A stretch of DNA of 64,000 nt from a virus. Lineage: Duplodnaviria; Heunggongvirae; Uroviricota; Caudoviricetes. Both the position numbers and the translations under genes were made by a program. The stretch's first letter is position 1. The number at the start of each line of letters is the position of its first letter. Under the pieces are notes generated by a model. It had not been told where the DNA came from and did no database searches. It was given only the letters and a program-made list of their open reading frames with translations. The stretch is from IMG/VR virus record IMGVR_UViG_3300035521_000566; one strand, written 5' to 3'. This document shows, piece by piece, positions 13,385 through 52,894 of the stretch.

Positions 13385-13588
13385 TAGGTAAGAATTTGAA
13401 GTTATCTCTATCTTTTCCCCTGCTCCACACCGTGCATGCGACTTTCACCGCACACGGCGTTCCATCACATTTCTGTGACTTGTGTCCATTCCTACTTCTC
13501 TCATTACAAGAGCTATCATCAGTTCGAACACTACTTTTCAATATCCATTAAACTGCTTATTATTCTTCGTCAGTAAACAAACCTGAAT

Positions 13589-13609
13589 TGAATATTGAAA
13601 TATGCTAAA
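13589..13609. repeat. 21-bp inverted repeat TTGAATATTGAAATATGCTAA, left copy (partner at 14829-14849) flanking the endonuclease ORF
   Basis: Perfect 21/21 reverse-complement match. Confidence 0.6.
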
Positions 13610-14756: not shown

Positions 14757-14828
14757 TTATAACATCCTCCACCTGCTGTAGTTTATGTAATAAATATACC
14801 ATAATTTGAAGCAAAAATCAATAAGTTT

Positions 14829-14849
14829 AGCATATTTCAATATTCAATT
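14829..14849. repeat. 21-bp inverted repeat, right copy
   Basis: Reverse complement of 13589-13609. Confidence 0.6.
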
Positions 14850-15305
14850 ATCAAGGTTCGCTGAATATCTTTCCAAGTTCCGTTATATCTATCTTTACAT
14901 ATTTACCCTTAGGTCTTTGCTCTAGTCCTGCCTATCTTGATTATGCCTGTAACATAATAAGGAGTTTCATAAGTTCAATTTTTACTAATCCTCAATAGAC
15001 TTAATTATATTTCTATAATTTGCAACTTAAGAACCGTACATTCGCAAATTCGTCAGATATTCATCATTCTAACCATAGGTAATTTATAGACATCCGACAT
15101 ATTAGTCACCATATAATCAATATACTTTCAAACAGGCGGATTCTAATCACTTTTGAACCAATTATACTGATACACATCATACTTAGGCTTCTGTCTGTCG
15201 ACTTTAACGAGCTTCATACAAATCAATGCATGTCGTAGCTTAATGTGAATATTTCAAGGCGTTACCCTATCATTCTATTCATTGATATAACAGTTCGCAT
15301 AATAA

Positions 15306-36299: not shown

Positions 36300-36314
36300 T
36301 ATTAAATCACTCCT

Positions 36315-37298
36315 TTATTTTTTCTTGCGAATAAGTAATCGTCTATACAACTTCTTTCCGTTAATTATATTTATATCATCTGAAAAGGACTGACCGTCGT
36401 GAAATCTACTATCTCCTAAAATTTCAAACTGGTCTGGATTGTATTTATCAAGAAATGTAATTGGCACGCCCATTATTCCATCATAGTCATATGGGATGTC
36501 ACTTGTTTTGTTCACATTGATAGCGTCATAATTATCATACTTCGGGTACTCCTCAGGTGTATAAGACTTGTACAAAATTAAGTCATTATGACGCTCAGCA
36601 TAATCTAAGTTAGTAAACCAACGTACGCCTTTTACTCGAATCCACTTTCTACCGTTGCCATCAATGCCACAGCCTGCTGCCTTTAATGGATAATCATCTG
36701 GCACATAAAACTTTCTGTCTCCGCTATGAATAGATGCACCGAACCAGAGGTCGTTATCACGAATTAACGGCAGAATTTCTTTACAAGTGATTGCATTCAC
36801 ATTTCCGATAATAATAAATTTTTTATTATGTGCCATCAAAAGAGCTATATATTCTCTGAAAAGTGAGAATGGTGGATTCGTCACTACAATGTCTGACTCG
36901 TCCAAAATCTTGATACACTCTTTGCTTCTGAAATCTCCATTTCCAATCAAGTCTGTTTTAACACCAGCCTGAATATCATTATCATTTCCGCCCGTATATT
37001 CTAACTTATATGTATTTCCATCCTGAACATAATGAGTTGAAACAAGCTTCTTTAAGCCTAATTCACTAAAATACAAATGAAAATACTCCCAAAATGCTGA
37101 CCAGGCAGGATTATCACAGTTGCATAAAACAGTCTTACCAATAAGGTGATTTTTATAATGCTTTAATTCATTTGCCACATCTGAAAGATGAGTATAGAAT
37201 TCATCTTTCTTCGCATCTTTTGCTTTATTCAAATTTTTATTTTTACTCATATTTAATACCATATCCAACGCATTTTGATTTATGTTTCTACACTTCAA
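36315..37298 (-). CDS. DNA adenine methyltransferase candidate (NPPF motif)
   Basis: VVTNPPFSLFREYIALL catalytic motif; no cognate restriction endonuclease adjacent (orphan). Confidence 0.55.
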   Translation of the reverse strand: MKCRNINQNALDMVLNMSKNKNLNKAKDAKKDEFYTHLSDVANELKHYKNHLIGKTVLCNCDNPAWSAFWEYFHLYFSELGLKKLVSTHYVQDGNTYKLEYTGGNDNDIQAGVKTDLIGNGDFRSKECIKILDESDIVVTNPPFSLFREYIALLMAHNKKFIIIGNVNAITCKEILPLIRDNDLWFGASIHSGDRKFYVPDDYPLKAAGCGIDGNGRKWIRVKGVRWFTNLDYAERHNDLILYKSYTPEEYPKYDNYDAINVNKTSDIPYDYDGIMGVPITFLDKYNPDQFEILGDSRFHDGQSFSDDINIINGKKLYRRLLIRKKK

Positions 37299-42135: not shown

Positions 42136-42196
42136 AATAATAAATCCTTTCTGTCACAAAAAAAATAAGTGTGGCAGTATTCTACCACACTTATCA

Positions 42197-42270
42197 GTAC
42201 CCTGCAAGAGACTCGAACTCTCAACCAAAGCCTTAGAAGGACCATGCTCTAATCCATTGAGCTAACAGGG
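42197..42270 (-). tRNA. tRNA-Arg (anticodon TCT)
   Basis: Hand-folded cloverleaf: acceptor ACCCTGT/GCAGGGT, T-loop TTCGAGT, anticodon loop CTTCTAA. Confidence 0.6.
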
Positions 42271-42277
42271 TGTGTAA

Positions 42278-42353
42278 GTATCTCCGACAGGATTCGAACC
42301 TGCGACAAACCGACGTTCGTAGCGTCGTGCTCTTGTCCGTTGAGCTACGGAGA
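42278..42353 (-). tRNA. tRNA-Arg (anticodon ACG)
   Basis: Acceptor ATCTCCG/CGGAGAT, anticodon stem CGACG/CGTCG, loop CTACGAA. Confidence 0.6.
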
Positions 42354-42361
42354 TATGTAAA

Positions 42362-42432
42362 CAGGCGATAAAGGAATCGAACCTCTGCCCTCAGGGTCAG
42401 AACCTGATTTGCTACCATTACAACAATCGCCT
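42362..42432 (-). tRNA. tRNA-Gln (anticodon CTG)
   Basis: Acceptor AGGCGAT/ATCGCCT, anticodon stem TCAGG/CCTGA, loop TTCTGAC. Confidence 0.55.
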
Positions 42433-42437
42433 ATAAG

Positions 42438-42509
42438 TACGAGTGGAAAGAATCGGACTTTCGTTACTTCCGTATCAGAGAAGTGCTCTACCATTGAACT
42501 ACACTCGCA
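42438..42509 (-). tRNA. tRNA-Ile (anticodon GAT)
   Basis: Acceptor GCGAGTG/CACTCGT, D-stem GTTC/GAGC, loop CTGATAC. Confidence 0.55.
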
Positions 42510-42512
42510 TAA

Positions 42513-42584
42513 AGATTTCGGAGAGAGTCGAACTCTCGTCTACAGGGTTGCAACCTGTCGTCTTAGCCTCTTGACTACGAAATC
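42513..42584 (-). tRNA. tRNA-Cys (anticodon GCA)
   Basis: Acceptor GATTTCG/CGAAATC, anticodon stem ACAGG/CCTGT, loop TTGCAAC. Confidence 0.55.
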
Positions 42585-42590
42585 ATTGAG

Positions 42591-42682
42591 CGTGGATAGT
42601 GAGACTCGAACTCACACACCGCCATAAGACGATTACTCAGAGATTAGCAATCTCTTGCCTTACCAATTAGGCTTATATCCAC
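42591..42682 (-). tRNA. tRNA-Ser (anticodon GCT), long variable arm
   Basis: Acceptor GTGGATA/TATCCAC, anticodon stem AGAGA/TCTCT, loop TTGCTAA, 92 nt. Confidence 0.55.
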
Positions 42683-42689
42683 GAATAAA

Positions 42690-42761
42690 CAGGGCGTATG
42701 GGAATCGAACCCATTCTGCGGGAGTCAAAGTCTCGTGCACTGACCATTATACTAACGCCCA
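42690..42761 (-). tRNA. tRNA-Gln (anticodon TTG)
   Basis: T-arm ATGGG-TTCGATT-CCCAT; loop CTTTGAC; one mismatch in anticodon stem and at 1:72. Confidence 0.45.
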
Positions 42762-42768
42762 ATATAAG

Positions 42769-42842
42769 CAAGTCTGGCAGGAATCGAACCTACGTTGCAT
42801 GGTTTTGGAGACCAGCCGATTTCCAATTATCTTTACAGACTT
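42769..42842 (-). tRNA. tRNA-Trp (anticodon CCA)
   Basis: Acceptor AAGTCTG/CAGACTT; loop CTCCAAA. Confidence 0.5.
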
Positions 42843-42849
42843 ATGATAA

Positions 42850-42934
42850 CGCCGTGCCAGGGATTCGAACCCTGATACCCTTTCGGGATGTCGGTTTTCA
42901 GGACCGATGCTGTACCAATTGAGCCAACACGGCA
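42850..42934 (-). tRNA. tRNA-Ser (anticodon TGA), long variable arm
   Basis: Acceptor GCCGTGT/GCACGGC; anticodon stem TCGGT/ACCGA, loop CCTGAAA; variable hairpin CCCGAAAGGG. Confidence 0.5.
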
Positions 42935-43234
42935 TATTTTGCAAAAATATAAGGAGCTGCCGTTAACGACAACTCCTTAAAAATCTCGAAAGGATATGTT
43001 TTTGAACACTTCTCTCAAGAAGAAATTGATTTATAATGAATAAGCGTTATTACGGCTTTATGCTCGAATATTCAATTCCACGACAAATTGTCCAACTTTG
43101 TATTGATGAACAACTGTTGGACTGGCTAATTCGCTGTGAAATTCTCGAATTATTCATTAAAGCCTTCATAACTTTACTCTCCTTTTCTTAATATAAACTT
43201 AGTATAAATCAAATTGACTCATATGTCAAGCAAT

Positions 43235-43890
43235 TTATGCAGGATAAACCGCATTTTCCCAGCTCATACCCTTTAATATCACAACTGTATCATACTTAAC
43301 AACATGCTTATCTGGTGCTTCATTTATCATGAAATCTTCATCAACTGTAAGATGAACTGGTTCCCAATAGCTGAATATCTTCTTAACAGAGGCATAGACA
43401 TTACGCTGCCATCCGTTTTCACGAGAGCCCTTTTCATATGTATAGAGCTCGAATTTTGGAATATTCAATTCTCTAAAATCAACATGCAGCGTCAGATATG
43501 TATACGGATTTCCCTTGTCAATATTAACATCTATTGGAACATAATATGTAGTAAATGTGTTGTTAATACCAAACTTAAACATAATATACTTGAACTCACG
43601 AAGCTCTGATACGCTTGCTACAAACGGATAACCTTCTGAACACACTTCTGTTTCATAAGTTTTCGTAAGAATAGAATATCCAAGCTTCGGATATTTTATA
43701 TCGTGTCTCTTATCGTCTTTATAAAAAGATTGAGATGTTGCTTCATCGTAAATATCTTTTACTAAAGTAGCGTCAAATATCACATCACTGCAATCTTCGT
43801 ACGGAAAATAAATACCTGCGTTTAATACAATACAACCTTTATCTGTTATGTCTTCGTTTTTCTCAATTATATTTTGAATTGAATTCTTCA
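43235..43890 (-). CDS. hypothetical protein (218 aa)
   Basis: Likely start MKNSIQ (ATG 43890, SD AAAGGAGAAAGAGG); sigma-70-like promoter TTGACA-17-TAAAAT at 43961-43989. Confidence 0.45.
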
Positions 43891-43960
43891 TACCTCTTTC
43901 TCCTTTTACTCTATGTTTTGAAATCATTATGTTAACAAATATTTACTCATATACGAGTGC

Positions 43961-43989
43961 ATTTTATCATGCCAATATTTTACTGTCAA
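43961..43989 (-). promoter_or_regulatory. sigma-70-like promoter TTGACA-17-TAAAAT
   Basis: Upstream of gene 43235..43890. Confidence 0.4.
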
Positions 43990-44107
43990 GACACAAATAT
44001 AACATAATATTATACAAATTCCTTGATTTATGAACGAATTTATGATAACATTACTGTATTATCACTATGTACATTGATAATTCTATATAAGCAAAGGAGA
44101 AGATACG

Positions 44108-44491
44108 ATGGGTTATTCTAGTTCAAGTTCTGCTGCAACTGCATTCGGAGCAGGTATGATTATTTACACAATCGTTCTACTTGCTATAAGCATAGTTATG
44201 ATTGTTGCCATGTGGAAATTATTTGAGAAAGCTGGTAAGCCAGGCTGGGCAGCGTTAGTACCTTATTATAATTTTTATATATTGTTTGACATCATATACG
44301 GTAACGGCTGGAAGATGTTACTCTTGCTGATACCATTTGCCAATTTTGTGTTCTTGATTTTAATGTATGTCAATCTAGCCAAAGTATTTGGCAAATCAGG
44401 CGGCTTCGCTGCTGGATTGATATTCTTATCACCAATTTTTATCCCAATTTTAGGATTCGGAGACGCTTCGTACGAAGGTCCTATAAAGTAG
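44108..44491 (+). CDS. membrane protein (3 TM)
   Basis: ORF; SD AAAGGAGAAG; bidirectional terminator 44526-44552. Confidence 0.45.
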   Translation: MGYSSSSSAATAFGAGMIIYTIVLLAISIVMIVAMWKLFEKAGKPGWAALVPYYNFYILFDIIYGNGWKMLLLLIPFANFVFLILMYVNLAKVFGKSGGFAAGLIFLSPIFIPILGFGDASYEGPIK

Positions 44492-44525
44492 CAACAGGAT
44501 TGTTACATAGTGATAATTGCAATAA

Positions 44526-44552
44526 AAAAGACATTACGCTGCGTAATGTCTT
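44526..44552. terminator. bidirectional terminator AAGACATTACG-CTG-CGTAATGTCTT between convergent genes
   Basis: A-run before and T-run after. Confidence 0.5.
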
Positions 44553-44563
44553 TTTTATTTTGC

Positions 44564-44794
44564 CTATTTATTTGATGTTGTATCTGTAACATCTGTCTCA
44601 AGGTCTTGGTCAAAGAAATCTGGGTCTACACCCCAGCCACCTTCTGAAGCATCATTATTATCGGTATTTGAAACATCTGAAATACTGTTACTACTGCTAT
44701 CATTTACAGCTGTATTAGTCTCATCACTTCTGCAACCTGTGATTATTGCAGCTATGACAACACATAGTGCTATGCTTAATGGTATCTTTTTCAT
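44564..44794 (-). CDS. small lipoprotein (76 aa)
   Basis: Signal peptide + lipobox ITGCRS. Confidence 0.4.
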   Translation of the reverse strand: MKKIPLSIALCVVIAAIITGCRSDETNTAVNDSSSNSISDVSNTDNNDASEGGWGVDPDFFDQDLETDVTDTTSNK

Positions 44795-44797
44795 ATG

Positions 44798-45613
44798 CTA
44801 CTCTCCTTGCTGTGATGCAACATGCGTCCATACGAGTTTTCTGCCGCATCCGCTGCAATAATTATCTGGTTCATCATCAGATGCACCAACTTTTTTGCCA
44901 GATGCAACAACTTTCTTACCGCAGCCTGAGCAGCAATATACTCCAAGTTCTTTGATTTCAATTACATTAGCTATGCTGTCATCATCAGATTTATCGTCTG
45001 CGTCTGATGAATCAGATGTATCATTTTCATCATACATAGGCAACTCATCTTCAGACTCAGTTACATCATCAGGCTCTGTCTCATATTCATCATAAACTGG
45101 AACATTTTCTGGTTCATTCACCTCTGAATCATAATCTTCTTCTATCTCACTTGCGTCTTCCAAAATTTCGTCATGAGTATCAGACTCACTTTCATTTTCT
45201 TCAGATTCGCCTTCTGGCAAGTCTTCTTCAGGACTTTCTGGTACAGGACTTTCTGGTACAGGACTTTCTGGTACAGGACTTTCTGGTACAGGACTTTCTG
45301 GTACAGGACTTTCTGGTACAGGACTTTCTGGTACAGGACTTTCTATACCACTGACTAATACATCCAGTCCATCTATGAATCTGATGTCTGAATCATTGCT
45401 CGTCTTTATACCTTCTTTAAATAGTTCTGCAGTAACACTGTTACACCAATCAAGCCACAATTCATGAACCATACTCTTGTGTTTCAAGTCAAGCGAAATA
45501 CTCACCAACTCCATCAAAGATTGATTGGTCATTGTTATGTTTCGCTCTTTCGCTTCTGACTTCATGGCTTCATACATATCCATTGCTTCAACTGCGTAGT
45601 CTTTGTAATCCAT
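44798..45613 (-). CDS. acidic protein with 8x PESPV pentapeptide repeat and C-terminal double zinc ribbon (CCSGCGKK...CSGCGRK)
   Basis: ORF; 15-bp DNA tandem repeat GGACTTTCTGGTACA x8 at ~45225-45345 encodes the repeat. Confidence 0.5.
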   Translation of the reverse strand: MDYKDYAVEAMDMYEAMKSEAKERNITMTNQSLMELVSISLDLKHKSMVHELWLDWCNSVTAELFKEGIKTSNDSDIRFIDGLDVLVSGIESPVPESPVPESPVPESPVPESPVPESPVPESPVPESPEEDLPEGESEENESESDTHDEILEDASEIEEDYDSEVNEPENVPVYDEYETEPDDVTESEDELPMYDENDTSDSSDADDKSDDDSIANVIEIKELGVYCCSGCGKKVVASGKKVGASDDEPDNYCSGCGRKLVWTHVASQQGE

Positions 45614-45896
45614 ATTGTTATCGCTCCTTTATAAATAAAATCTACTGTAATCCCATGCATTGTTAATAACTTTTTTCTATTGACTCACATTTATCTTCAT
45701 GATATGCTTTGACTCTGACAATACAGCATCAAAGGAGAGGCTAAATTATGTTTAGAAAAATATTTGTTAATCACAAAGCAAATTTAGAAACTGACTATGG
45801 CATTCCATATGGCAAGTATATATGGCTCATTGCTATGGCTGCATTCAGAAATTGCTAATGATAAGACAGAGAGTTTTTTACTCTCTGTATTTTATA

Positions 45897-46808
45897 TTAA
45901 ATACATTTCTTTTTGCTTAGATGATACGGTATTCCTAAACACTTACACTTATACTCCAGACCTTTTACAGTCCTGCCTGGCAGCATTTCTGCAAGCTCTG
46001 CCAGTGTTTTTGAATCTGAATATTCGCACAAAATTTTAATCTCATTATCTGTATAGCTATTCTTTTTCTTTCGCTCACAGCCCAATACATTCAACCTGCT
46101 TATAATTGCACACTCTGTTCGATGAAAATGTTCAGCCATATAAGCAACGCTTTTATTATATTGATTCATCATAACTAATGACCTGTCCTCAGAATCAGTC
46201 CATTCTAAGTTATGCTTGTCTTTATTCCAGCTGCCATCTGACTTTCGCTTTGCTTTCAGCCAGTCTGGTTCGTCGATAAAAAGCAAATTACTAACTTGTG
46301 ATGCATCAAACAAATCCTGATGTTGCTCTAAAAACTCAAGCAACTCGTCTGTATCTATTAGATAATGTCTACGTTTCTGTCCAGACTTGTGCGTTTTTAA
46401 GCCTAAACGAATCCAGGAATATACACGGTCTGACGAAACTTTCATTTCATCACAAATATCTCTTACTGTAAGATAATAAGAATCATGGTTTCTTGGACCA
46501 AGCTTTAAAACAACTGCTCTTTGCTGTAAGGCGTGCCATGTACGCTTATGGCGTCTTACGAGTGTGTCATTACTCACTTCTTCATCCTGCCACTCCGCTA
46601 TAAAATCATTTGTTTCTTCATCTGTCCATCGTCTGCCTTTTGTCATAATACGAACACCCAGCTTCTTTGAACGAAGACGTGTTGCATTTTCAGTTCGACC
46701 AAGCTCCAAAGCTATTTTCTTAAGTGGTCGACCACGATTTGCCATATCTATCAGAATGTCATCATCTTTTGCAGTCCAAGGTCTTTTATTTTTACTCATA
46801 TTAAACAT
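45897..46808 (-). CDS. DNA-binding protein with four Myb/SANT-like HTH repeats
   Basis: Repeats RPWTAKDDDILIDMANRG..., RRWTDEETNDFIAEW..., WTDSEDRSLVMMNQY..., YTDNEIKILCEYSD... Confidence 0.45.
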   Translation of the reverse strand: MFNMSKNKRPWTAKDDDILIDMANRGRPLKKIALELGRTENATRLRSKKLGVRIMTKGRRWTDEETNDFIAEWQDEEVSNDTLVRRHKRTWHALQQRAVVLKLGPRNHDSYYLTVRDICDEMKVSSDRVYSWIRLGLKTHKSGQKRRHYLIDTDELLEFLEQHQDLFDASQVSNLLFIDEPDWLKAKRKSDGSWNKDKHNLEWTDSEDRSLVMMNQYNKSVAYMAEHFHRTECAIISRLNVLGCERKKKNSYTDNEIKILCEYSDSKTLAELAEMLPGRTVKGLEYKCKCLGIPYHLSKKKCI

Positions 46809-46946
46809 TCCATTCTGTCTCGTAATCTTATAAAAGTGTTCATTTTTCTAAATAATAATAACACAAATACTCATATAAAGCAACCAATATACTCATATAT
46901 GAGCAATAAAAATACTCTCGCAGAAACTACGAGAGTGTTTATTTAA

Positions 46947-47021
46947 TTGCGGGAGCTGGATTCGAACCAGCGTATCCCAGGTTATGGAGCCAGTGAGTTA
47001 CCTATCCTCGTCATTCTGCGA
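46947..47021 (-). pseudogene. degenerate tRNA-Met-like copy (3' half identical over 40 nt to tRNA at 48243-48316; 5' half diverged, acceptor stem broken)
   Basis: 46947-46986 TTGCGGGAGCTGGATTCGAACCAGCGTATCCCAGGTTATG equals 48243-48282; upstream half has 3 acceptor mismatches and a disrupted anticodon stem. Confidence 0.5.
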
Positions 47022-47039
47022 TGTTGTAATATAATAAGA

Positions 47040-47480
47040 CTATAACTGGGTTATATACTGGTTAAATGATGTGAGAATATCCAGCATTCTCCTATCACTA
47101 CCACAATCATTCCACATATAATCTTCATCCCATTCGTCTATACACTTATACCTATCCAGAAATCTACGAATAACAAATACTTCATCACTCGTAACACCAT
47201 ATGCAGCAATAAATATATCTTCCATTCCATACAAATTGCTAACTGTCATATCTTCAAGAATTGGAGTCACATACTTAATCTCAAGACCCACTTCTCTAAA
47301 CAAAGATTCCGTAAACTCTCTATCACCTGTATCTCGATTATTAGATTTCATATAATACTGAAACAATGCACAGCAAATATCTTGATGAATCTTGCTCATC
47401 CATTTTTTAAAAAGACCTTTTATGGTCATATTACTCATAATATCATCTGAACTGCTAACTTGATTCTTTGACATACACAT
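47040..47480 (-). CDS. hypothetical protein (146 aa)
   Basis: ORF between the two tRNA-Met-like copies. Confidence 0.4.
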   Translation of the reverse strand: MCMSKNQVSSSDDIMSNMTIKGLFKKWMSKIHQDICCALFQYYMKSNNRDTGDREFTESLFREVGLEIKYVTPILEDMTVSNLYGMEDIFIAAYGVTSDEVFVIRRFLDRYKCIDEWDEDYMWNDCGSDRRMLDILTSFNQYITQL

Positions 47481-47595
47481 TCGCCAAACCTTTCTTCATT
47501 CATTTATGAGAAGATTTTAGCATGACAATATATAATTGTCAATTAAAATACTTACCGAATCCTGTCGCCCCATATTCTATGATATTGACAAAAAA

Positions 47596-47626
47596 AATGG
47601 AAATCTGAAGCACAGATTTCCATTTT
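47596..47626 (-). terminator. terminator GGAAATCTG-AAGCA-CAGATTTCC + T8 (minus strand)
   Basis: Downstream of gene 47634..48173. Confidence 0.45.
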
Positions 47627-47633
47627 AAAGCCA

Positions 47634-48173
47634 TCAATAATTACCTTTTGCAACAACACGGAAAACAGCATTTTTATCAATTCCGTTATGAAATTTTACA
47701 AGATAGAATCCGCTCTTATTTTGCACATCATAAAATAAATCGTCTTCTTTGATAAAATACTGCTGTCCATCTATGGTACATACATTATTTTTCTTAAATC
47801 CGAAATATTCAGACATTGTTTGAATAAGTTCTCGCTGTATCAATCTTACTTTCTTTTTGTCAGTAATTACAGCATCGGCAAACTCAAATGTAGTTTCATT
47901 CATCATTTTACTTTTGTGTCTAATATTATAAACCTTACCAGTTAAATAAATGAATCCTGTTACACAAATTAAAATACTTACGCCAAGCAATATGTCAAGC
48001 CAGCCAAGAGAATTCATTGCAAAATCCCATGCAATCAATATAATCATGAGTATAGTTACTAAGAAAATAACCGAACTATACGTCTGACCTCGTTTTGCTG
48101 ATACAAGATATTCTCTTGAGAATCTGACAGATAATGCTTCGCTTAACTTTTTATCAGCTACCTTTGTTTCCAA
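47634..48173 (-). CDS. membrane protein (179 aa, 2 TM)
   Basis: ORF; terminator 47596-47626 downstream. Confidence 0.4.
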   Translation of the reverse strand: METKVADKKLSEALSVRFSREYLVSAKRGQTYSSVIFLVTILMIILIAWDFAMNSLGWLDILLGVSILICVTGFIYLTGKVYNIRHKSKMMNETTFEFADAVITDKKKVRLIQRELIQTMSEYFGFKKNNVCTIDGQQYFIKEDDLFYDVQNKSGFYLVKFHNGIDKNAVFRVVAKGNY

Positions 48174-48242
48174 GAAAAAAAATTACTCCTTTCTTAACTT
48201 AATAAAACTCCTGTAACTAAATAAAATTACAAGAGCTTTTAG

Positions 48243-48316
48243 TTGCGGGAGCTGGATTCGAACCAGCGTATCCCAGGTTATGAGCCTGATGAGCATCCTC
48301 TACTCGCCATCCCGCT
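48243..48316 (-). tRNA. tRNA-Met (anticodon CAT); A1:A72 mismatch at top of acceptor stem
   Basis: T-arm GCTGG-TTCGAAT-CCAGC, anticodon stem TCAGG/CCTGG, loop CTCATAA. Confidence 0.55.
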
Positions 48317-48326
48317 ATATGTAAAC

Positions 48327-48402
48327 TGCAATGGTGACACTAAGCCTCGAACGTCAAGCCTTGCGGCTTAACGCCCGTCTCCCACGACGTTTTACCCATT
48401 GC
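48327..48402 (-). ncRNA. 76-nt structured element closed by a perfect 7-bp terminal helix (GCAATGG/CCATTGC) but with non-canonical core; atypical tRNA-like or other small RNA
   Basis: Terminal helix and T-loop-like GTTCGAGG present; D and anticodon arms cannot be folded canonically; internal hairpin AAGCC-TTGC-GGCTT. Confidence 0.3.
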
Positions 48403-48482
48403 TATTTCTTATGTGTGCATACATAAGAACCTTATGCCTGAGTTTTAATGTACTGTTCATGCACTCAAGTACATCTGCTCCA

Positions 48483-48553
48483 TACTCGTAATGGGATTCG
48501 AACCCACGTCTAAAGATTAAAAATCCTGCTCTGTCCAAACTGAGCTATACAAG
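48483..48553 (-). tRNA. tRNA, probably Lys (anticodon TTT) with weak 4-bp anticodon stem
   Basis: Acceptor ACTTGTA/TACGAGT, T-arm GTGGG-TTCGAAT-CCCAT, loop TTTTTAA. Confidence 0.4.
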
Positions 48554-48634
48554 TATATTTAACATACACTAAACCTTTATTTATTCATTTATGAGAAGAT
48601 TTTAGCACAATAATACATATTTGTCAAACGAAAA

Positions 48635-48707
48635 TACTTGCAGTGGGACTTGAACCCACGACCTCGGAATTAAGAGTTCCTTGCTCTCCCAACTGAGCTA
48701 TACAAGC
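48635..48707 (-). tRNA. tRNA-Lys (anticodon CTT)
   Basis: T-arm GTGGG-TTCAAGT-CCCAC; loop CTCTTAA. Confidence 0.5.
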
Positions 48708-48753
48708 ATATCACAACAAATCTTGTCATGACTTGCAATATTATTGCAATTAG

Positions 48754-48825
48754 TCCCCCTGACAGGATTTGAACCTGCGATATACTGGTTAAAAGCCAGT
48801 TGCCATTCCGCTTGGCTACAGAGGG
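48754..48825 (-). tRNA. tRNA-Lys (anticodon TTT)
   Basis: Acceptor CCCTCTG/CAGGGGG, D-stem GCCA/TGGC, anticodon stem ACTGG/CCAGT, loop CTTTTAA. Confidence 0.55.
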
Positions 48826-48886
48826 TTATTTACTTTGGTTTTCGACACTTCTGTTTTCGTTTCATACTTATTTCCTTCTTTCTTAA

Positions 48887-48960
48887 ATTATTATAGCGGC
48901 TCCAACGGGAATCGAACCCGTGCTCTACTGCGTGACAGGCAGTTGATTTAACCAGTTAAT
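48887..48960 (-). tRNA. tRNA-Asp (anticodon GTC)
   Basis: Acceptor GGCTCTA/TGGAGCC, anticodon stem ACTGC/GCAGT, loop CTGTCAC. Confidence 0.55.
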
Positions 48961-48964
48961 CTAT

Positions 48965-49048
48965 AGAGCCATAGTCGGTAGGGTGAGATTCGGACTCACA
49001 ACGTTTCTAATGTCACAGTTTTACAGACTGCTTGCTTCACCAGTTTGC
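48965..49048 (-). tRNA. tRNA-Tyr (anticodon GTA), long variable arm
   Basis: Acceptor CGGTAGG/CCTACCG, loop CTGTAAA, 84 nt. Confidence 0.55.
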
Positions 49049-49117
49049 ATACCTACCGTAATCAGTAATAATCAAGGATATAATAATAATCAACCATATT
49101 CATCACTCCTTTTAATA

Positions 49118-49198
49118 AAATCATAAGTACCCGTAGAGGGATTCGAACCCTCACCCTTTCGGGACCTGTTTCTAAGACAAGCATGTATTCCAGTTCCA
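49118..49198 (-). tRNA. tRNA-Leu (anticodon TAG), long variable arm
   Basis: Acceptor GCCCGTA/TACGGGT, loop CTTAGAA, variable hairpin CCCGAAAGGG. Confidence 0.5.
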
Positions 49199-49203
49199 AC
49201 ATA

Positions 49204-49278
49204 CGGGCATAAGTAGGTGTGGTCAGATTCGAACTGACAATAAAATTGTGTTTGAAACAACCCCGTCTACCAGTTGCG
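49204..49278 (-). tRNA. tRNA with anticodon CAA (Leu by anticodon) but class-I length (75 nt)
   Basis: Acceptor GGGTGTG/CACACCT, anticodon stem GTTGT/ACAAT, loop TTCAAAC; no long variable arm. Confidence 0.4.
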
Positions 49279-49282
49279 GCAC

Positions 49283-49366
49283 ACACCCACAGTACACCCG
49301 ATGAGAGTCGAACTCACATGCTGTTACCAGCGTCAGAGCTTAAATCTGATGCGTCTTCCAGTTCCG
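49283..49366 (-). tRNA. tRNA-Leu (anticodon TAA), long variable arm
   Basis: Anticodon stem TCAGA/TCTGA, loop TTTAAGC, 84 nt. Confidence 0.5.
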
Positions 49367-49467
49367 CCACGGGTGCATAATTATTTAATTTTAGTTCACC
49401 TGCGAGTCGCAGGACTTGTAATCGCAATCGTAACATAATCTTAATCTCCTATTCTGAAATATTTGCA

Positions 49468-49538
49468 AGCTGGATAAGCGAATCGAACGCTTGTCATCGG
49501 GTTACAAAGCCGAGGCTCTGCCATTGAGCAAATCCAGC
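49468..49538 (-). tRNA. tRNA-Thr (anticodon TGT)
   Basis: Acceptor GCTGGAT/ATCCAGC; loop TTTGTAA; one mismatch at base of anticodon stem. Confidence 0.45.
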
Positions 49539-49543
49539 ATAGT

Positions 49544-49612
49544 TGCTGCAACCAGGTTCGAACTGATTACAATGTGGATATGAGCCACATCTGCTTCCAC
49601 TAGCATTGCAGC
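49544..49612 (-). tRNA. compact tRNA with CAT anticodon (Met, or Ile2 if lysidinylated), 69 nt
   Basis: Acceptor GCTGCAA/TTGCAGC, anticodon stem TGTGG/CCACA, loop CTCATAT, short D-arm. Confidence 0.45.
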
Positions 49613-49747
49613 ATTATTTTAAAATCAATGCCTTTCTCACTTTCTCCGCAAAGAACGAGCTTTCATCAAGTGGTAGGATGACACATCATCTACTCACCGC
49701 TATGGCTGTCCGCAAACACCGATGGGCTTTATATTTTGCTATTTCAG

Positions 49748-49818
49748 TAGGGCGTAACGGAATCGAACCGTTCTTAGATGCTTATAAGACACCCGCACTC
49801 CCACTGTACTAACGCCCC
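49748..49818 (-). tRNA. tRNA-Ile (anticodon TAT)
   Basis: Acceptor GGGGCGT/ACGCCCT, anticodon stem GGTGT/GCATC, loop CTTATAA. Confidence 0.45.
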
Positions 49819-49882
49819 TTATTTAATAATAAAAGACGCTATTCGTATTCGTTTTGATTCCATTAAAAGTTCTCCTTTTTTT

Positions 49883-49955
49883 TTATATAATAAGTGCGTA
49901 ACGGGAATCGAACCCGTCCCTTTAGTTTGGAGGACTAACATGCAAGCCGCTAACA
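49883..49955 (-). tRNA. tRNA, anticodon unresolved (best fold gives TCC = Gly with C33)
   Basis: Good acceptor GTGCGTG/TACGCAC and T-arm ACGGG-TTCGATT-CCCGT; anticodon loop CCTCCAA. Confidence 0.35.
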
Positions 49956-49997
49956 CCTCACGCACATTTTTTTTATATCAAGTAAGTGCCTGTTTTA

Positions 49998-50069
49998 CTT
50001 GATATAATACTCGGTACGAGAATCGAACTCGTCTCTTTGCCGTGAAAGGGCAACAACTTAACCGCTTGT
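49998..50069 (-). tRNA. tRNA-Glu (anticodon TTC)
   Basis: T-arm ACGAG-TTCGATT-CTCGT, anticodon stem TTGCC/GGCAA, loop CTTTCAC. Confidence 0.5.
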
Positions 50070-50085
50070 CCAACCGAGCATATTT

Positions 50086-50161
50086 AATATTTAAAGGTGA
50101 CCGACGGGATTTGAACCCGCATCCTTCGGAACCACAATCCGACGCATTACCAAAAATCTGC
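50086..50161 (-). tRNA. tRNA-His (anticodon GTG)
   Basis: Anticodon stem TCGGA/TCCGA, loop TTGTGGT; T-loop TTCAAAT. Confidence 0.5.
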
Positions 50162-50162
50162 C

Positions 50163-50235
50163 ACAGCCACAGTACCCGATGTATGACTCGAACATACCAC
50201 CCTCTGTATGTAAGACAGATGCTCTACCAGATGAG
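50163..50235 (-). tRNA. tRNA-Val (anticodon TAC)
   Basis: Acceptor GCCCGAT/ATCGGGT, anticodon stem TCTGT/ACAGA, loop CTTACAT. Confidence 0.5.
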
Positions 50236-50241
50236 CTAATC

Positions 50242-50316
50242 GGGCATATAATCGGAATGGCGAGATTCGAACTCACAATGTCTCGGTCCCAAGCCGAGCG
50301 GATTAGCCAAATTATC
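50242..50316 (-). tRNA. tRNA-Pro (anticodon TGG)
   Basis: Acceptor CGGAATG/CATTCCG, anticodon stem CTCGG/CCGAG, loop CTTGGGA. Confidence 0.55.
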
Positions 50317-50323
50317 CTACATT

Positions 50324-50397
50324 CCGATATTCAGTAGTCCCTGCGGGAATTGAACCCAGCGTCTCCAGATTGAGAGTCTGATGTCGTAACCGTTAGA
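50324..50397 (-). tRNA. tRNA-Glu (anticodon CTC)
   Basis: Acceptor GGTCCCT/AGGGACT, anticodon stem TCAGA/TCTGG, loop CTCTCAA; weak T-stem. Confidence 0.4.
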
Positions 50398-50430
50398 CTA
50401 AGGGACCATATTCTATAAGCAATACCTTTC

Positions 50431-50505
50431 TAACAGTATTGGATTCGAACCACATCTCCGTGTCACTCACCACGACGTTCTACCATTGAACTAACCACCA
50501 TACTC
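50431..50505 (-). pseudogene. degenerate tRNA-like sequence (good D-arm; 8-nt anticodon loop GTGAGTGA; weak T and acceptor stems)
   Basis: D-arm GTTC-AATGGTA-GAAC intact; acceptor has 4 GU pairs; T-stem has only 3 pairs. Confidence 0.3.
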
Positions 50506-50518
50506 GGTATTACTTAAA

Positions 50519-50594
50519 TGGAGCTTTTGGGAATCGAACCCAACTGTTTTCCTGCTTGCAAGGCAGGTGACCACCCCTTGCAGTCCCAAACCCC
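50519..50594 (-). tRNA. tRNA-Ala (anticodon TGC) with G3:U70 identity pair
   Basis: Acceptor GGGGTTT/AAGCTCC (G3-U70 wobble), anticodon stem CCTGC/GCAGG, loop CTTGCAA, T-arm TTGGG-TTCGATT-CCCAA. Confidence 0.5.
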
Positions 50595-50602
50595 ATATTA
50601 AG

Positions 50603-50675
50603 TGGCTCGTGATAGTTTCGGGCTATCGACACTTTGGGCTTCAACCAAATGCTCTACCATCTGAGCTAACGAGCC
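50603..50675 (-). tRNA. tRNA-Phe (anticodon GAA) with unusual T-loop CCCGAAA
   Basis: Acceptor GGCTCGT/ACGAGCC, D-stem GCTC/GAGC, anticodon stem TTTGG/CCAAA, loop TTGAAGC, T-stem GATAG/CTATC. Confidence 0.5.
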
Positions 50676-50726
50676 AGTTTTATTTAGTTTAACTTATTAT
50701 CAGGTGCCTGTTCTGATAATAATCAG

Positions 50727-50799
50727 CTCCCACAACAGGGTTCGAACCTGTGACATACTGGTTAACAGCCAGTCGCTCTACCTACTGAGCTATATGGGA
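50727..50799 (-). tRNA. tRNA-Asn (anticodon GTT)
   Basis: D-arm GCTC-AGTAGGTA-GAGC, anticodon stem ACTGG/CCAGT, loop CTGTTAA, T-arm ACAGG-TTCGAAC-CCTGT. Confidence 0.55.
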
Positions 50800-51871
50800 A
50801 TATATTAAAAAAATCGCCTATCTTTTAATCTGGTCTAATTTTATCTAAGATAAATATTAGCCGTTATTGGATAGACGATTTGCTTTATATATAAATAAGC
50901 TTATAATAACACTTTAAGTTCGCAATCGTCTAATCCGTGGTTCGAGATGCCCAAATAACGCTATATCGGCGTAGTCCTCTCCCGTAAAATCGACTGTCGG
51001 ATTTGAGCATGACAAATTAAACATATTCACTGGATATGTTTTTGCAAATGTATTAGGTTTATTATACATGCTCTGCTTTTTCATAATGCTCATTTCCTTT
51101 CTAAAATATTTGTCTTGTATAATGTAAAATGCCCATCTTTTATCCGACAGGTCCAACAAATTAGTTTCAAGATACTGCAGTAGCCATCCTCATTCGAGGT
51201 GTAGCCCGCTCGCTTGATACGCTGTTAGTAAACTATCAGATAAAAGACAGGCACTTCTTTTATCAGATTTATTATCCTTTTATATAATACATCAGCGTTT
51301 TCACCTTGTCAAGCATTTTTTGCTGATTTCTGAATTTTTTTTGTATTTTGTTACTTTTGCGAATAAATGTTGTGAAGCTTGTGAGGAAAACCGTCTTTTA
51401 AATCCTTGTTTAATTAACAGTTTTCCTCACCTTCATGCACACATATATTTTGTTCACAAAAAGAGGAGACCTAAAGATATTAGTAACACCTTTGGACAAT
51501 TAGAGTATACTAAAAATCTCCTCATATGTCAAGGAATTTTGACAAAATTTTAAAGATATTGTATCATACTGTACATCTTTAAGCATAATAAACACTTTTA
51601 TTATATTAAGCCAAAATCGACAGATGGCTCTGTAACGCTTCACAACGCTCCAGAATCCATTTTAACGTTTTAGGCAACCTGTTTATCCTAAAAATTGATA
51701 AAGTGCCTTAAAACGCAAAATACGAGGTCGTTTTTGCAAACTCGTCTTCTATTCTGGAACTTTCGTGCCTAATTTTAGCACATGCACTGTTCACAACTTC
51801 AGATAAACTGTAGTCGAAACCATTCTCACTTCATGCCTCGTAGATTTTACGAGTCAAATTTGAAACTTAAA

Positions 51872-52894
51872 TCATAATATACATTCCTCAGCGTTTTTCT
51901 CAGGACGCAATCTTAAAAATCTAGGATGTCTGTACGCCCCTGTCTTCTTAATCTGTTCCATCGCACCAATCTCCATTGCTGTTCCAATGTATTCTGGCTT
52001 AATATTATGATTACCGTCTGATAACAGAATCTTAGTGGCATCATCTATTCCCGATGTCTGACCAAGCTCTACTAAGCTGCCTTCGACATATTTGCCGAAT
52101 CGAATGGCTCCAATCCAGCCGTTATGCCATGCCTTTGTTACTTTGTCACCATTCTCGTAATATTGCCAGACTGTAGTATTATCTTGGTCTAATAAGATAC
52201 CTTCGTATTCTCTTGTAGGAGCGGTTGCCCCCATTATGACTACATCATCTGTAATATACTTCTTGAGCTTTATCTGCATCTTACTTCTTGTAGGACTGTC
52301 GCTTGATGACATATATATGCTGTCTTTATGCTTTAACACAAGTCCTTCACCGCCAGAGCCTACAATCTTATGAAACAAATCCATCTTGTTTCTTGTATAA
52401 GTAGGCAAAACGATAATATAATCTGTTCCGTATTTGGCTTTAATCTGAGCTACTACTTGTGATGCCAACTTAATACGGTCTGAATATCCCATATTTGTTA
52501 CATCAACACCGTTATGTCTTACAATATCAAAGACTTTATACTTGATATAGCCCATTTGTTCCTGTTTCTTGATTGCCAGTTCTGGCAAACTGCCCATAAT
52601 TGAAACTGTCTGGCTGAAATCATCATGCTGAATTTCACCATCTAAAATCGTACCAGCCAGTTCAGGCATCACTAATTTAGATAAGTGAGGTACGTTTTCA
52701 GTTTTCTCTACAGGTGCACCCGTAATTCTTGACTTCTGTCGGCTACTGAATCTATTGCAATCTGCTTCAATAAACATCGTATACCGACTTCCGTCTACTT
52801 TTTCCTGTGCTATCCAATCACTGTCATCTGCAAGCATCTCATCAGTAATTGTACCTGAAGACGCAAGCATCGGATATAAAGCTTCTAACTGCAT
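51872..52894 (-). CDS. ATP-dependent DNA ligase (T7-like, 340 aa)
   Basis: Motif I IAQEKVDGSR (KxDG), motif III/IV TILDGEI, motif V GGEGLVLKHKDS. Confidence 0.65.
   Translation of the reverse strand: MQLEALYPMLASSGTITDEMLADDSDWIAQEKVDGSRYTMFIEADCNRFSSRQKSRITGAPVEKTENVPHLSKLVMPELAGTILDGEIQHDDFSQTVSIMGSLPELAIKKQEQMGYIKYKVFDIVRHNGVDVTNMGYSDRIKLASQVVAQIKAKYGTDYIIVLPTYTRNKMDLFHKIVGSGGEGLVLKHKDSIYMSSSDSPTRSKMQIKLKKYITDDVVIMGATAPTREYEGILLDQDNTTVWQYYENGDKVTKAWHNGWIGAIRFGKYVEGSLVELGQTSGIDDATKILLSDGNHNIKPEYIGTAMEIGAMEQIKKTGAYRHPRFLRLRPEKNAEECIL

Follow-up and report, generated by a model that had tools for sequence, protein, structure and literature searches.

Between positions 42197 and 50799, a 64,000-nucleotide stretch of DNA that is catalogued as viral (IMG/VR record IMGVR_UViG_3300035521_000566, assigned to the Caudoviricetes; the whole stretch is hereafter the window) carries a dense array of tRNA genes, which is split in two by protein-coding genes and lies near the relaxase gene of what is probably a large conjugative element. 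We describe here the content of this array, its conservation in related elements, and two short control regions, one ahead of each block of tRNA genes, whose predicted RNA folds and small open reading frames (ORFs) suggest that the tRNAs might be expressed on demand.

Gene content of the array

ARAGORN calls exactly 30 tRNA genes in this interval, every one of them on the minus strand, and makes no further call in the rest of the window. This agrees with a reading of the sequence alone that had placed about 30 minus-strand genes here by eye, and the isotypes coincide with that hand-made list (Leu-TAG, Leu-CAA and Leu-TAA; two genes each for Arg, Gln, Ser and Glu; two with a CAT anticodon; Ile-TAT), the "two or three" lysine genes resolving into three. 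The Rfam tRNA model RF00005 supports 28 of the ARAGORN genes at or above its gathering score of 29 bits, mostly with 40-72 bits; the Tyr gene scores 49.4 bits in a permissive run and a gene labeled "gagt" by ARAGORN scores 29.8. The remaining two, Ala-TGC (50518-50595) and a CAT gene at 49542-49613, find no match with RF00005 and are called by ARAGORN only. Automated finders thus uphold rather than reject the genes called by hand (ARAGORN 30/30, Rfam 28/30), and an array of this kind is well outside what chance would produce. Rfam also detects a gene at 42772-42840 (30.6 bits) that was missed by both ARAGORN and the sequence-only reading. It can be identified as Trp-CCA because it has the anticodon loop CUCCAAA, a 7-bp acceptor stem that uses the flanking AA/TT, and G73; a canonical Trp gene with the identical loop occupies the matching slot, between Ser and Gln-UUG, in the complete array of a sister element (L136). 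The total is hence 30 anticodon-bearing tRNA genes, one tRNA-like gene and one pseudogene. The trinucleotide CCA is encoded by none of them, as had been seen earlier: 15 genes continue N73-C-T and the others N73-T.

The genes fall into two blocks, both recovered with ARAGORN and Rfam on the minus strand. Block 1 (48242-50799) comprises 22 genes in the order Asn, Phe, Ala (aberrant), the tRNA-like gene, Glu-CUC, Pro, Val, His, Glu-UUC, Gly, Ile-UAU, Met at 49542 (aberrant), Thr, Leu-UAA, Leu-CAA, Leu-UAG, Tyr, Asp, Lys-UUU, Lys-CUU, Lys-UUU and an initiator-like Met. Block 2 (42197-42934) comprises nine: Ser-UGA, Trp-CCA (42769-42842, weak), Gln-UUG, Ser-GCU, Cys, Ile-GAU, Gln-CUG, Arg-ACG and Arg-UCU; block 2 of L136 has the identical six amino-acid specificities. 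Between the blocks lies a protein-coding cassette (43235-48173). The earlier description of two protein-coding stretches interrupting the array holds in that both are present, with the qualification that a decayed tRNA copy at 46942-47022 sits between them.

A tRNA array unit has been defined as at least 20 tRNA genes at a density of at least 2 per kb (Tran et al., 2016; PMC4758250). The present locus exceeds both bounds, with 3.6 genes/kb over 8,603 nt even when the 5.3-kb cassette is included, and with 8.6/kb in block 1 and 12.2/kb in block 2. It also has features of an L-array (Santamaria-Gomez et al., 2021; PMC8421152), namely co-orientation with co-transcribable spacing (a single orientation with intra-block gaps of 1-165 nt), a sporadic horizontal distribution, and a non-periodic order of isotypes, the most similar pair inside the array being 77 % identical.

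A complete minimal decoding set

The 30 tRNAs have 28 distinct anticodons (14 with U34, eight with G34, seven with C34 and one with A34), which cover all 20 amino acids in addition to the initiator-like tRNA. Provided that U34 reads whole family boxes, 60 of the 61 sense codons are readable, and the sole unread codon, CGG, makes up 3 % of the Arg codons of the element. The sequence-only reading had seen in the array an A/U-ending-biased set suited to an AT-rich element. The AT-richness stands, the element having ~37 % GC and its genes a GC content at third codon positions (GC3) of 0.33; the bias of the set does not, as the array is a complete minimal decoding set rather than an A/U-biased subset. 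For instance, C34 tRNAs are present for CAG, AAG, GAG and UUG, and the element itself favors CAG (76 %) and AAG (52 %). ATA accounts for 25 % of the Ile codons and AGA for 39 % of the Arg codons, and each has a dedicated tRNA (Ile-UAU and Arg-UCU, respectively).

Structural conservation across diverged arrays

Three diverged versions of the array can be compared: that of the window, that of L001, L002 and L136 (relaxase 85 % identical), and that of L128 (80 %). Genes with the same anticodon are 64-85 % identical between versions. In the acceptor, anticodon and T stems, 488 of 496 stem positions (98 %) are paired, with the caveat that ARAGORN structures are paired by construction. In comparisons between versions, for which orthology of isoacceptors is assumed, 203 stem pairs differ: 153 have changed on both sides and are still paired, 38 have changed on one side and are still paired, and 12 are broken in one partner. 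Certain identity elements are kept in every lineage, such as G3·U70 and A73 in Ala, C1-G72 and A73 in Pro, and U73 in Cys, Gly and Thr; the same is true of the discriminators G73 in Ser, Asp, Asn, Gln and Trp, and A73 elsewhere. Both the stems and the aminoacylation identity elements thus appear to have been maintained across the diverged relatives.

The top of the acceptor stem shows a particular pattern. The G1-U72 pairs and 1:72 mismatches pointed out in the sequence-only reading are indeed there, G1·U72 in nine genes and mismatches in a CAT tRNA (A1×A72) and in Gln-UUG. They are poor evidence of degeneracy, as G1·U72 is fixed in particular isoacceptors in all the diverged arrays (Ile-UAU 4/4, Glu-CUC 3/3, Leu-UAA 3/3, Leu-CAA 3/3, Leu-AAG 2/2 and Lys-CUU 3/3); for this reason it is inherited and probably selected, and not a sign of decay. 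The CAT tRNA at 48242-48316 resembles bacterial initiators in carrying CUCAUAACC and a 3′ CCCGCAAC, and it keeps its 1×72 mismatch with different bases, A×A in the window and U×U in L128. This fits a role of the mismatch as a mark of the initiator-like tRNA, just as a weak 1:72 pair agrees with Gln identity.

The suspicion that the array has degenerate members was correct for the tRNA-like gene, the pseudo-initiator, the odd Ala and Met genes, the weak Trp and a His gene without G-1, while several other features taken for degeneracy are conserved or expected. Some of the anticodon-bearing genes may nevertheless be poorly functional, which counts against the array as a working whole: the D arms of Ala, Met-49542 and Trp are weak; C33 replaces U33 in Ser-UGA (42849-42934) and Gly-UCC (49893-49965); Phe (50602-50675) has a CCCGAAA T-loop; and His (50096-50170, minus strand; 8420-8496 in L128) has no encoded G-1, position -1 being a T. 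A G-1 is normally needed by the bacterial histidyl-tRNA synthetase. Overall, we have high confidence that the array is real and largely functional.

Further variation is seen in individual isoacceptors. C33 also occurs in the Leu-AAG and Ser-CGA genes of relatives, and the discriminator of the His tRNA differs, C73 in the window as against A73 in L128. Arrays of the L001/L136 type lack both a His tRNA and a His codon in the block-1 leader, while the leaders of the window and L128 have one His codon each, an anecdotal correspondence. In Leu-CAA (49213-49288, minus strand), which is 76 nt long, the long variable arm is lost; it is likewise lost in the 75-76-nt Leu-UAA and Leu-AAG of the sister arrays (L001 17972-18124), and these short-arm leucine tRNAs retain Leu-type D arms, G1·U72 and A73.

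The putative control region of block 1

A promoter-like site, P1 (51284-51312, minus strand; TTGACA-17-TATTAT), lies upstream of block 1. It aligns with TTGACT-17-TAATAT, with a TG, in L136 and with TTGACA-17-TAATAT in L128, and a promoter of the form TTGACA-17-TAtTAT is common to all four lineages (the window, L001, L128 and L136). At a distance of 19-29 nt downstream of the -10 box follows a 30-nt motif, GATAAAAGAAGTGCCTGTCTTTTATCTGAT (51235-51264, minus strand), which contains a 9-bp palindrome or hairpin and is 100 % identical in the four lineages, in flanks that are only ~70 % identical. It is found once in the window, where none is expected by chance, and among 137 fetched loci only in the seven that bear the array; a scan of metagenome and viral collections with the invariant 26-nt motif gave no matches. 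There is a second invariant motif, GUCGGAUAAAAGAUGGGCAUUUU (51126-51148, minus strand). Both motifs share GAUAAAAGA and are predicted to form either a local hairpin or, by RNAalifold on the four lineages and by minimum-free-energy folds, a long-range helix of 23-25 bp, which encloses a variable insert of 60-140 nt upstream of the first leader ORF. The long-range helix displays no covariation, both of its arms being invariant. This invariance suggests that the arms are recognized sequence-specifically by a protein or make a tertiary RNA contact, and the Myb/HTH protein encoded within the array is a candidate binder.

Leader ORF 1 (50914-51084, minus strand) has 56 codons (MKKQSMYNKPNTFAKTYPVNMFNLSCSNPTVDFTGEDYADIALFGHLEPRIRRLRT) and a Shine-Dalgarno sequence, and is also a gene in the Joint Genome Institute (JGI) record. 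It is kept in L001, L128 and L136 at 44-54 % identity, with 50-57 codons over the lineages; an exhaustive search with the peptide returned only itself (P0266) and spurious repeat matches to MBG_2, FG-GAP and LRR proteins. Downstream of it is a terminator-like two-tier hairpin, AAAUCGUCUAUC...GAUAGGCGAUUU followed by U7 (50804-50883, minus strand), which ends 5 nt before tRNA-Asn. RNAalifold finds the stem conserved in the four lineages (AAAUCGUCUAU…AUAGRCGAUUU, then U7), and RNAfold gives z = -4.1.

The last codons of leader ORF 1 (…R-L…) include (UA)GACGAUU, a near-copy of the 3′ arm of the terminator, which is therefore complementary to its 5′ arm. This putative antiterminator segment, GGAUUAGACGAUUGC (50922-50936, minus strand), has its core 7 nt before the stop codon and is predicted to pair with 50869-50883 in the terminator 5′ arm. 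When the whole leader is scanned it is the best partner of that arm (-18.5 kcal/mol, the next best reaching -12.4), and it ranks first in all lineages, its core always falling 1-7 nt short of the stop codon. The predicted energies of the antiterminator folds are −16.7 (window), −20.9 (L001), −20.1 (L128) and −20.9 (L136) kcal/mol, and those of the terminator folds −21.5, −16.5, −13.9 and −15.0 kcal/mol, respectively; the antiterminator thus matches its competitor in stability. The pairs that flank the core are lineage-specific yet paired (GGAU:AUCC, UCCA:UGGA and GAUAGA:UCUAUC); they are in different registers in each lineage, and a column-wise covariation count was hence dropped for this switch. 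The predicted layout is the standard geometry of a ribosome-mediated attenuator, and we hold with moderate confidence that block 1 is under translation-dependent attenuation.

Within block 1, between Lys-CUU and Lys-UUU, there is in addition an internal 78-bp promoter module (48562-48639, minus strand; TTGACA-17-TGnTAAAAT), a duplicate of which is found at 47477-47553.

The putative control region of block 2

Block 2 has its own promoter-like site, P2 (43201-43229, minus strand; TTGACA-17-TATACT), followed by a leader ORF of 39 codons with a Shine-Dalgarno sequence (leader ORF 2, MKALMNNSRISQRISQSNSCSSIQSWTICRGIEYSSIKP; 43050-43169, minus strand), which has a homologue in L136. A 174-nt segment with 80 % conservation in L136 contains P2, AAAGGAGA and the 39-codon ORF. 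About 70 nt beyond the ORF and 15 nt upstream of the first tRNA is a terminator-like hairpin of 13 bp with a U-run (42950-42979, minus strand), called by a terminator scanner, whose homologue in L136 has one added G-C pair. The block ends in a strong intrinsic terminator with a 14-bp stem and U8 (42164-42195, minus strand), 2 nt after the last tRNA.

The composition of the leader peptide is unusual. Of its 39 residues, 25 (64 %) are S, I, Q, R, C or W, against 25 % in the proteome of the element (P = 3e-7), and precisely these six are the amino acids served by the nine block-2 tRNAs. The homologue in L136 has 20 such residues in 38 (53 %; P = 2×10⁻⁴). Leader ORF 2 has the highest fraction of these residues among 249 small ORFs in all six frames; conversely, this set ranks second among the 38,760 possible six-residue sets for this ORF. 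For every block-2 anticodon there is a cognate codon in the leader, whose RNA is predicted to form a long hairpin of its own. Specific sampling, by the leaders, of the tRNAs downstream of them is a tentative proposal, to which we give distinctly less credence than to attenuation of block 1.

Additional RNA features of the locus

The tRNA-like gene (50430-50500, minus strand; "tRNA-???(gagt)" in ARAGORN) is devoid of an anticodon loop and has homologues in L001 (~17395-17462) and L136 (7757-7824). In the window its arm is capped by GUGAGUGA, which amounts to two GNRA loops (GUGA-GUGA), whereas the homologues, 87 % identical over the aligned columns, have a GUAA tetraloop; the acceptor stem shows a compensatory change from G3·U70 to C3-G70. 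The 8-nt loop of the window is thus a tandemly duplicated GNRA tetraloop, and the gene is not a decoder. We considered whether the loop might belong to a quadruplet-decoding frameshift suppressor, and rejected this because the relatives carry a 4-nt GNRA loop. The gene is no less conserved than the real tRNAs, and it might serve as a processing signal, a decoy or a non-ribosomal acceptor.

The decayed copy of the initiator-like tRNA (46942-47022, minus strand) is 84 % identical to 48238-48318 and goes uncalled by both ARAGORN and Rfam. With C1×A72, A4×C69, A6×C67 and C33, it is a pseudogene.

A further candidate is a conserved 117-nt structured RNA within block 1 (49617-49733, minus strand; L001 18580-18696, L136 9042-9154). 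The segment is 82-85 % identical in L001 and L136, and RNAalifold predicts a multi-stem fold of 34 pairs, five of them with compensatory changes. It lies mid-block in the window, but in the sister lineage it closes block 1. Searched on their own, the 117-nt RNA, the two leaders and the tRNA-like gene gave no Rfam match, the leader and 117-nt regions returning noise only at E-values up to 10; in the window as a whole no Rfam family other than tRNA and group II intron, and hence no T-box or riboswitch, reaches its gathering score.

The carrier element and the distribution of the array

The array lies beside genes for an ATP-dependent ligase (51872-52894) and a MobL-family relaxase (53491-55620, minus strand; Pfam MobL, 2.2e-55 over residues 7-391), which are syntenic with it in L001, L128, L129 and L136. 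The window also encodes a coupling protein with matches to Pfam T4SS-DNA_transf (8e-13) and TraG-D_C (3e-7) and to the NCBIfam VirD4-like CD1115 family (2e-28, below the curated cut-off), together with a P4/D5 primase, a ClpB-like ATPase, two DNA methylases, a 1,453-aa surface protein and a cell-wall hydrolase domain; as regards a VirB4-type ATPase and mating-pair formation, a 768-aa ORF beside the coupling protein has no match in Pfam, PHROGs, NCBIfam or PADLOC. Searches of 30 ORFs against PHROGs and ~39 against Pfam, within the 64 of ~200 kb that the window represents, gave no virion structural or packaging family, and the sole "tail" match is a lysozyme domain. Three JGI metagenomes contain an identical element (99.99-100 % over 7-15 kb), the contigs measuring 184 and 210 kb, and sister elements are found on contigs of 195-209 kb from human-gut samples, including Hadza. 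Contigs in the 184-210 kb range are JGI 3300035522 Ga0376477_0000002 and ENA ERZ28615191 scaffold_32 and ERZ4559822 NODE_82. The carrier is an uncultured 184-210 kb element of the MobL/VirD4 conjugative type, probably with Bacillota (Gram-positive) hosts. Over 1,400 members of the relaxase family were found, frequently on contigs of 100-260 kb and many from human-gut metagenomes.

An attempt to assign a host through GTDB genomes failed, as the metagenome-assembled genome bins that carry the relaxase in gut samples are taxonomically inconsistent and the best GTDB relaxase match reaches 57 %, the rest being actinobacterial chromosomal elements. No cultured or deposited relative was found in phage and plasmid collections. 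Megablast of the array against these collections returned nothing, and searches at lower stringency gave similarity at the level of single tRNAs only (at most 84 %, in unrelated taxa), which is uninformative on host or origin.

The array is confined to a clade with at least 80 % relaxase identity and is absent at 77 % or less; about 75 other relaxase neighborhoods have no tRNA array, among them 71 devoid of tRNAs. Within the array-bearing clade the order is always relaxase → ligase → … → an array that starts with Asn and Phe. Beyond this the order and membership of the genes are reshuffled among the three versions, with, for example, two Tyr copies (one broken), four Leu genes, a Ser-CGA and no His in L136. 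Duplication with a shift of anticodon is also evident, since Lys-UUU at 48482 is closest to Lys-CUU. The array thus evolves by birth and death.

The cassette that splits the array contains seven ORFs, all on the minus strand other than DUF5684 on the plus strand: a 179-aa membrane protein, a 146-aa protein, a 303-aa Myb/HTH_17 protein, a 271-aa acidic protein with PESPV repeats, a 76-aa protein, DUF5684 and a 230-aa protein. The window and the sister lineage alike have the Myb/HTH_17 gene within the array (56 % identity), and the split into two blocks is for that reason ancestral. Used as a synteny anchor, this gene led to L136 and failed for P0246 and P0245; three neighborhoods anchored on DUF5131 had no tRNAs. 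Cassette proteins other than the HTH protein have no sequence matches in PHROGs, PADLOC or PDB. The acidic protein (44798-45613, minus strand) has eight tandem PESPV repeats and a zinc-ribbon-like C-terminal CxxC pair, with no family, defense or structure match.

Several side features of the window and its relatives are worth recording. A group II intron (13378-15298, minus strand; Rfam RF02004 at 15083-15298, 104 bits, and RF00029 at 13378-13462, 62 bits) interrupts the coupling-protein gene, whose two parts are 15306-18515 and 12182-13384; the intron ORF (13605-14756) matches HNH and intron-encoded endonuclease PHROGs and no Pfam reverse-transcriptase family. An EcoRI-type adenine methylase (35520-37298, minus strand; Pfam 6e-125) adjoins an N6/N4 methylase, and an adjacent endonuclease was not detected; the pair may be orphan anti-restriction methylases. 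In L084 a PolyA_pol/CCA-adding-type nucleotidyltransferase (8305-9915) lies directly upstream of the DUF5131 gene, with no tRNAs within 10 kb. Cas1 and Cas2 genes accompany a homologue of the HTH protein (L218 1379-2140) on its contig, and hence some related elements may carry CRISPR adaptation modules. IMG/VR lists as viral the 57-250 kb contigs of more distant relaxase relatives (L088-L125, 28-55 % identity), although relaxase and coupling-protein genes are typical of the family; these contigs may be misclassified or phage-plasmid hybrids.

A model of conditional expression and its alternatives

The locus displays its genes, with their structural integrity, conservation and synteny, its promoters and terminators, and the RNA helices that compete; from these we infer how its transcription, processing, charging and regulatory logic might work. 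Two polycistronic precursors would be transcribed from sigma-70-type promoters, and the tRNAs would be released by the RNase P and RNase Z of the host; because no gene encodes CCA, completion by the host CCA-adding enzyme is proposed. As each block stands behind a small translated leader ORF and an intrinsic-terminator-like hairpin, expression would be conditional. In block 1, a ribosome that finishes the leader would mask the antiterminator, so that the terminator forms and the tRNAs are off; a ribosome stalled earlier would leave the antiterminator free to pair with the 5′ arm of the terminator and allow read-through into the tRNAs. Stalling might be triggered by a shortage of charged tRNAs, by codon mismatch in a new host, by tRNA cleavage by defense nucleases or by ribosome inhibitors. 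The array would then be an on-demand tRNA reserve, making translation of the element independent of the tRNA pool of the host. We regard it as reasonably probable that the locus is a functional, horizontally mobile pair of tRNA operons of the L-array or tRNA array unit kind, carried by a conjugative element and expressed on demand.

Several observations weigh against regulation of this kind. The simple terminator scanner does not flag the block-1 hairpin in the window or the relatives, its stem being two-tier. The core antiterminator pairs are invariant over only three distinct lineages and so give no formal covariation, and the block-1 leader is not enriched for the amino acids of block 1 (84 % observed versus 82 % expected). 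For block 2 an antiterminator was not found: the terminator forms in every ribosome-position scenario folded, and the best competing duplex reaches only -9 to -10 kcal/mol, at non-conserved sites. Moreover, transcription and translation are often uncoupled in Bacillota, though ribosome-mediated attenuators are known there.

Of the other explanations, constitutive compensation for codon usage fares best, though we consider it unlikely. Here the tRNAs would decode the AT-rich codons of the element in hosts of different bias, and the ORFs and hairpins would be ordinary neighbors. The low GC3, the dedicated tRNAs for ATA and AGA and the provision of U34 tRNAs for all family boxes are in line with this, and the array of the Bifidobacterium megaplasmid pMP7017 has been reported to match the codon usage of its plasmid (PMC10832533). 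However, the set is complete and not limited to rare or A-ending codons; the terminator-like hairpins stand so close ahead of the first tRNA in either block (5 and 15 nt) that there is no room for a separate promoter; and the overlap of the block-1 antiterminator with the stop region of the leader in all lineages is hard to explain if expression is unconditional.

Slightly less likely still, taken by itself, is an anti-defense reservoir that replaces host tRNAs destroyed by immune nucleases or toxins, with peculiarities that make its copies poor substrates. The array has the near-complete amino-acid coverage of mycobacterial plasmid arrays for which such a role was proposed (PMC12803027), and tRNAs are recognized immune targets (PMC12851939). 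Its three Lys genes include two diverged UUU copies, its tRNA DNA diverges about as fast as the neighboring protein genes with the synthetase identity elements kept, and G1·U72 is fixed in specific isoacceptors. Against this, no tRNA-repair or known anti-defense gene is found among ten proteins screened against PADLOC, and the unusual positions could equally mean relaxed constraint. Anti-defense is compatible with on-demand control and may be its selective driver; the same is true of codon mismatch, and the two are not separable here.

It is very improbable that the array is a cryptic passenger, that is, an acquired island that is largely silent, insulated by terminators, eroding and functionless. 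One might cite for this the pseudo-initiator, the tRNA-like gene without an anticodon, the several aberrant members and the broken Tyr copy of the sister arrays, along with the shuffling among close relatives, the absence of the array at 77 % relaxase identity or less, and the poor transcription of many L-arrays (PMC8421152). Decay is nevertheless hard to reconcile with stems paired at 98 % of positions, with 153 compensatory changes against 12 breaks, with the conservation of identity elements, promoters, leaders and terminators, and with the presence of all 20 specificities in two diverged lineages, only His being missing in the L001/L136 type.

That the window derives from a large phage or phage-plasmid with a T4/T5-like or jumbo-phage cluster for late-gene translation can practically be dismissed. 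In its favor are the viral classification of the contigs with distant relaxase relatives and the presence in the window of an HNH endonuclease and a D5/P4 primase, along with a DUF5131/Gp37-like gene and a group II intron. Against it, the window encodes a relaxase as well as a coupling protein, its 30 screened ORFs (with 64 of ~200 kb seen) include no capsid, portal, terminase or tail-structure family, and there is no similarity beyond the single-tRNA level in 50,697 phage records.

Relationship to known systems and implications

Functionally, the locus is closest to the arrays of Anabaena, pMP7017 and mycobacterial plasmids, and it has no sequence relationship to any of them. The trn operon of Anabaena sp. 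PCC 7120 has 26 tRNA genes on a plasmid and is silent until induced by translational stress (PMC8421152, PMC10272220). Like it, the present locus is a long, co-oriented, non-periodic and horizontally spread array of supernumerary tRNAs on a plasmid-type replicon, with some non-functional members and a homing endonuclease nearby; expression is tied to the state of translation there and may be so here, as the cis-architecture suggests. The two differ in host phylum, in carrier (here a MobL element) and in the two-block split with an embedded protein cassette found here. They differ also in control: the trn operon has a trans-acting ribbon-helix-helix repressor, TrcR, on promoter repeats, while the present locus has a small ORF, an antiterminator and a terminator in cis, and the papers on the former make no mention of a leader peptide or attenuation (PMC8421152, PMC10272220).

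The conjugative megaplasmid pMP7017 of Bifidobacterium breve (190 kb) has an array that is transcribed (PMC10832533). It is, like the present carrier, a human-gut conjugative element of ~200 kb, with an array in several tandem transcription units and tRNAs that have diverged from the host copies, and adaptation of the pool of tRNAs to the plasmid's codon usage was proposed (PMC10832533). It differs in being GC3-rich, in having 20 tRNAs for 12 amino acids with an adjacent transfer-messenger RNA and manA RNA, and in that no leader or terminator control is described. A relationship between the two was rejected on account of the GC3-richness of pMP7017 and the lack of a relaxase or DNA match to it; the best PLSDB match of the relaxase is a Streptomyces plasmid (44.6 %), again with no DNA match. 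A relationship to the "Hodor" gut megaplasmids was likewise rejected, as these exceed 300 kb, have a MOBH-like relaxase and are described with no mention of tRNAs. Array units are also known from Mycobacterium plasmids and phages and from integrative elements of Acidithiobacillus, with an anti-defense role proposed (PMC5966550, PMC12803027, PMC4758250). These fall under the same definition, cover 19-20 amino acids on mobile carriers and show D-, anticodon- and variable-arm variants; their hosts are however Actinobacteria or Proteobacteria, their carriers linear plasmids with type VII secretion systems, integrative and conjugative elements or phages, and no regulatory leaders are reported.

Phage tRNA clusters (T4, T5 and jumbo phages) are typically dense, CCA-less and fast-evolving, in AT-rich genomes, with Ile-UAU, duplicated Lys genes and an occasional aberrant or tRNA-like member. 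The present array shares the dense, CCA-less, fast-evolving tRNAs, the AT-rich mobile genome, Ile-UAU, the duplicated Lys and the aberrant members, and differs in that the window has conjugation genes and no virion genes were seen in it. Leader-peptide attenuators, in turn, are known from the trp, his and pheST operons of enterobacteria and from the antibiotic-sensing bmrB and vmlR leaders of Bacillota. The control regions resemble these in their promoter, Shine-Dalgarno sequence and short ORF, and terminator ahead of the regulated genes, in an antiterminator that a ribosome at the stop codon might mask (block 1 only), and in a leader enriched in residues relevant to the downstream products (block 2). 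They differ in that tRNAs would be regulated, in place of biosynthetic, synthetase or resistance genes; in having no run of a single codon and, in block 2, no recognizable antiterminator; and in the additional invariant 5′ helix module of block 1. We found no report of leader-peptide control of a tRNA operon in a literature search. What is new here is control of an attenuator-like kind, a leader that mirrors the codons of its tRNAs, a conserved gene that is tRNA-like, and a structured RNA embedded in the array. The analysis also brings to light an abundant and undescribed family of 100-260 kb MobL-type elements of gut metagenomes, some of which are catalogued as viruses.

Mobile tRNA arrays are widespread, and the timing and purpose of their expression are debated, with codon compensation, anti-defense and cryptic cargo among the proposals. 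The present locus is a compact, testable cis-regulatory unit that should tie tRNA output to ribosome decoding. It is conceivable, although we would put it at somewhat below even, that tRNA arrays of mobile elements can be "supply-on-demand" modules, in which leaders probe the decoding capacity in cis and open the terminator only when ribosomes falter. If the proposed control is true, no ribosome-mediated attenuator of tRNA genes would have been known before it, and it would explain how arrays can be silent in standard conditions and yet be maintained, firing after a codon-mismatched transfer or when immune nucleases or toxins deplete the host tRNAs. It would then constitute a natural sensor of tRNA sufficiency, one that could give the large conjugative elements of gut Bacillota translational autonomy across their hosts.

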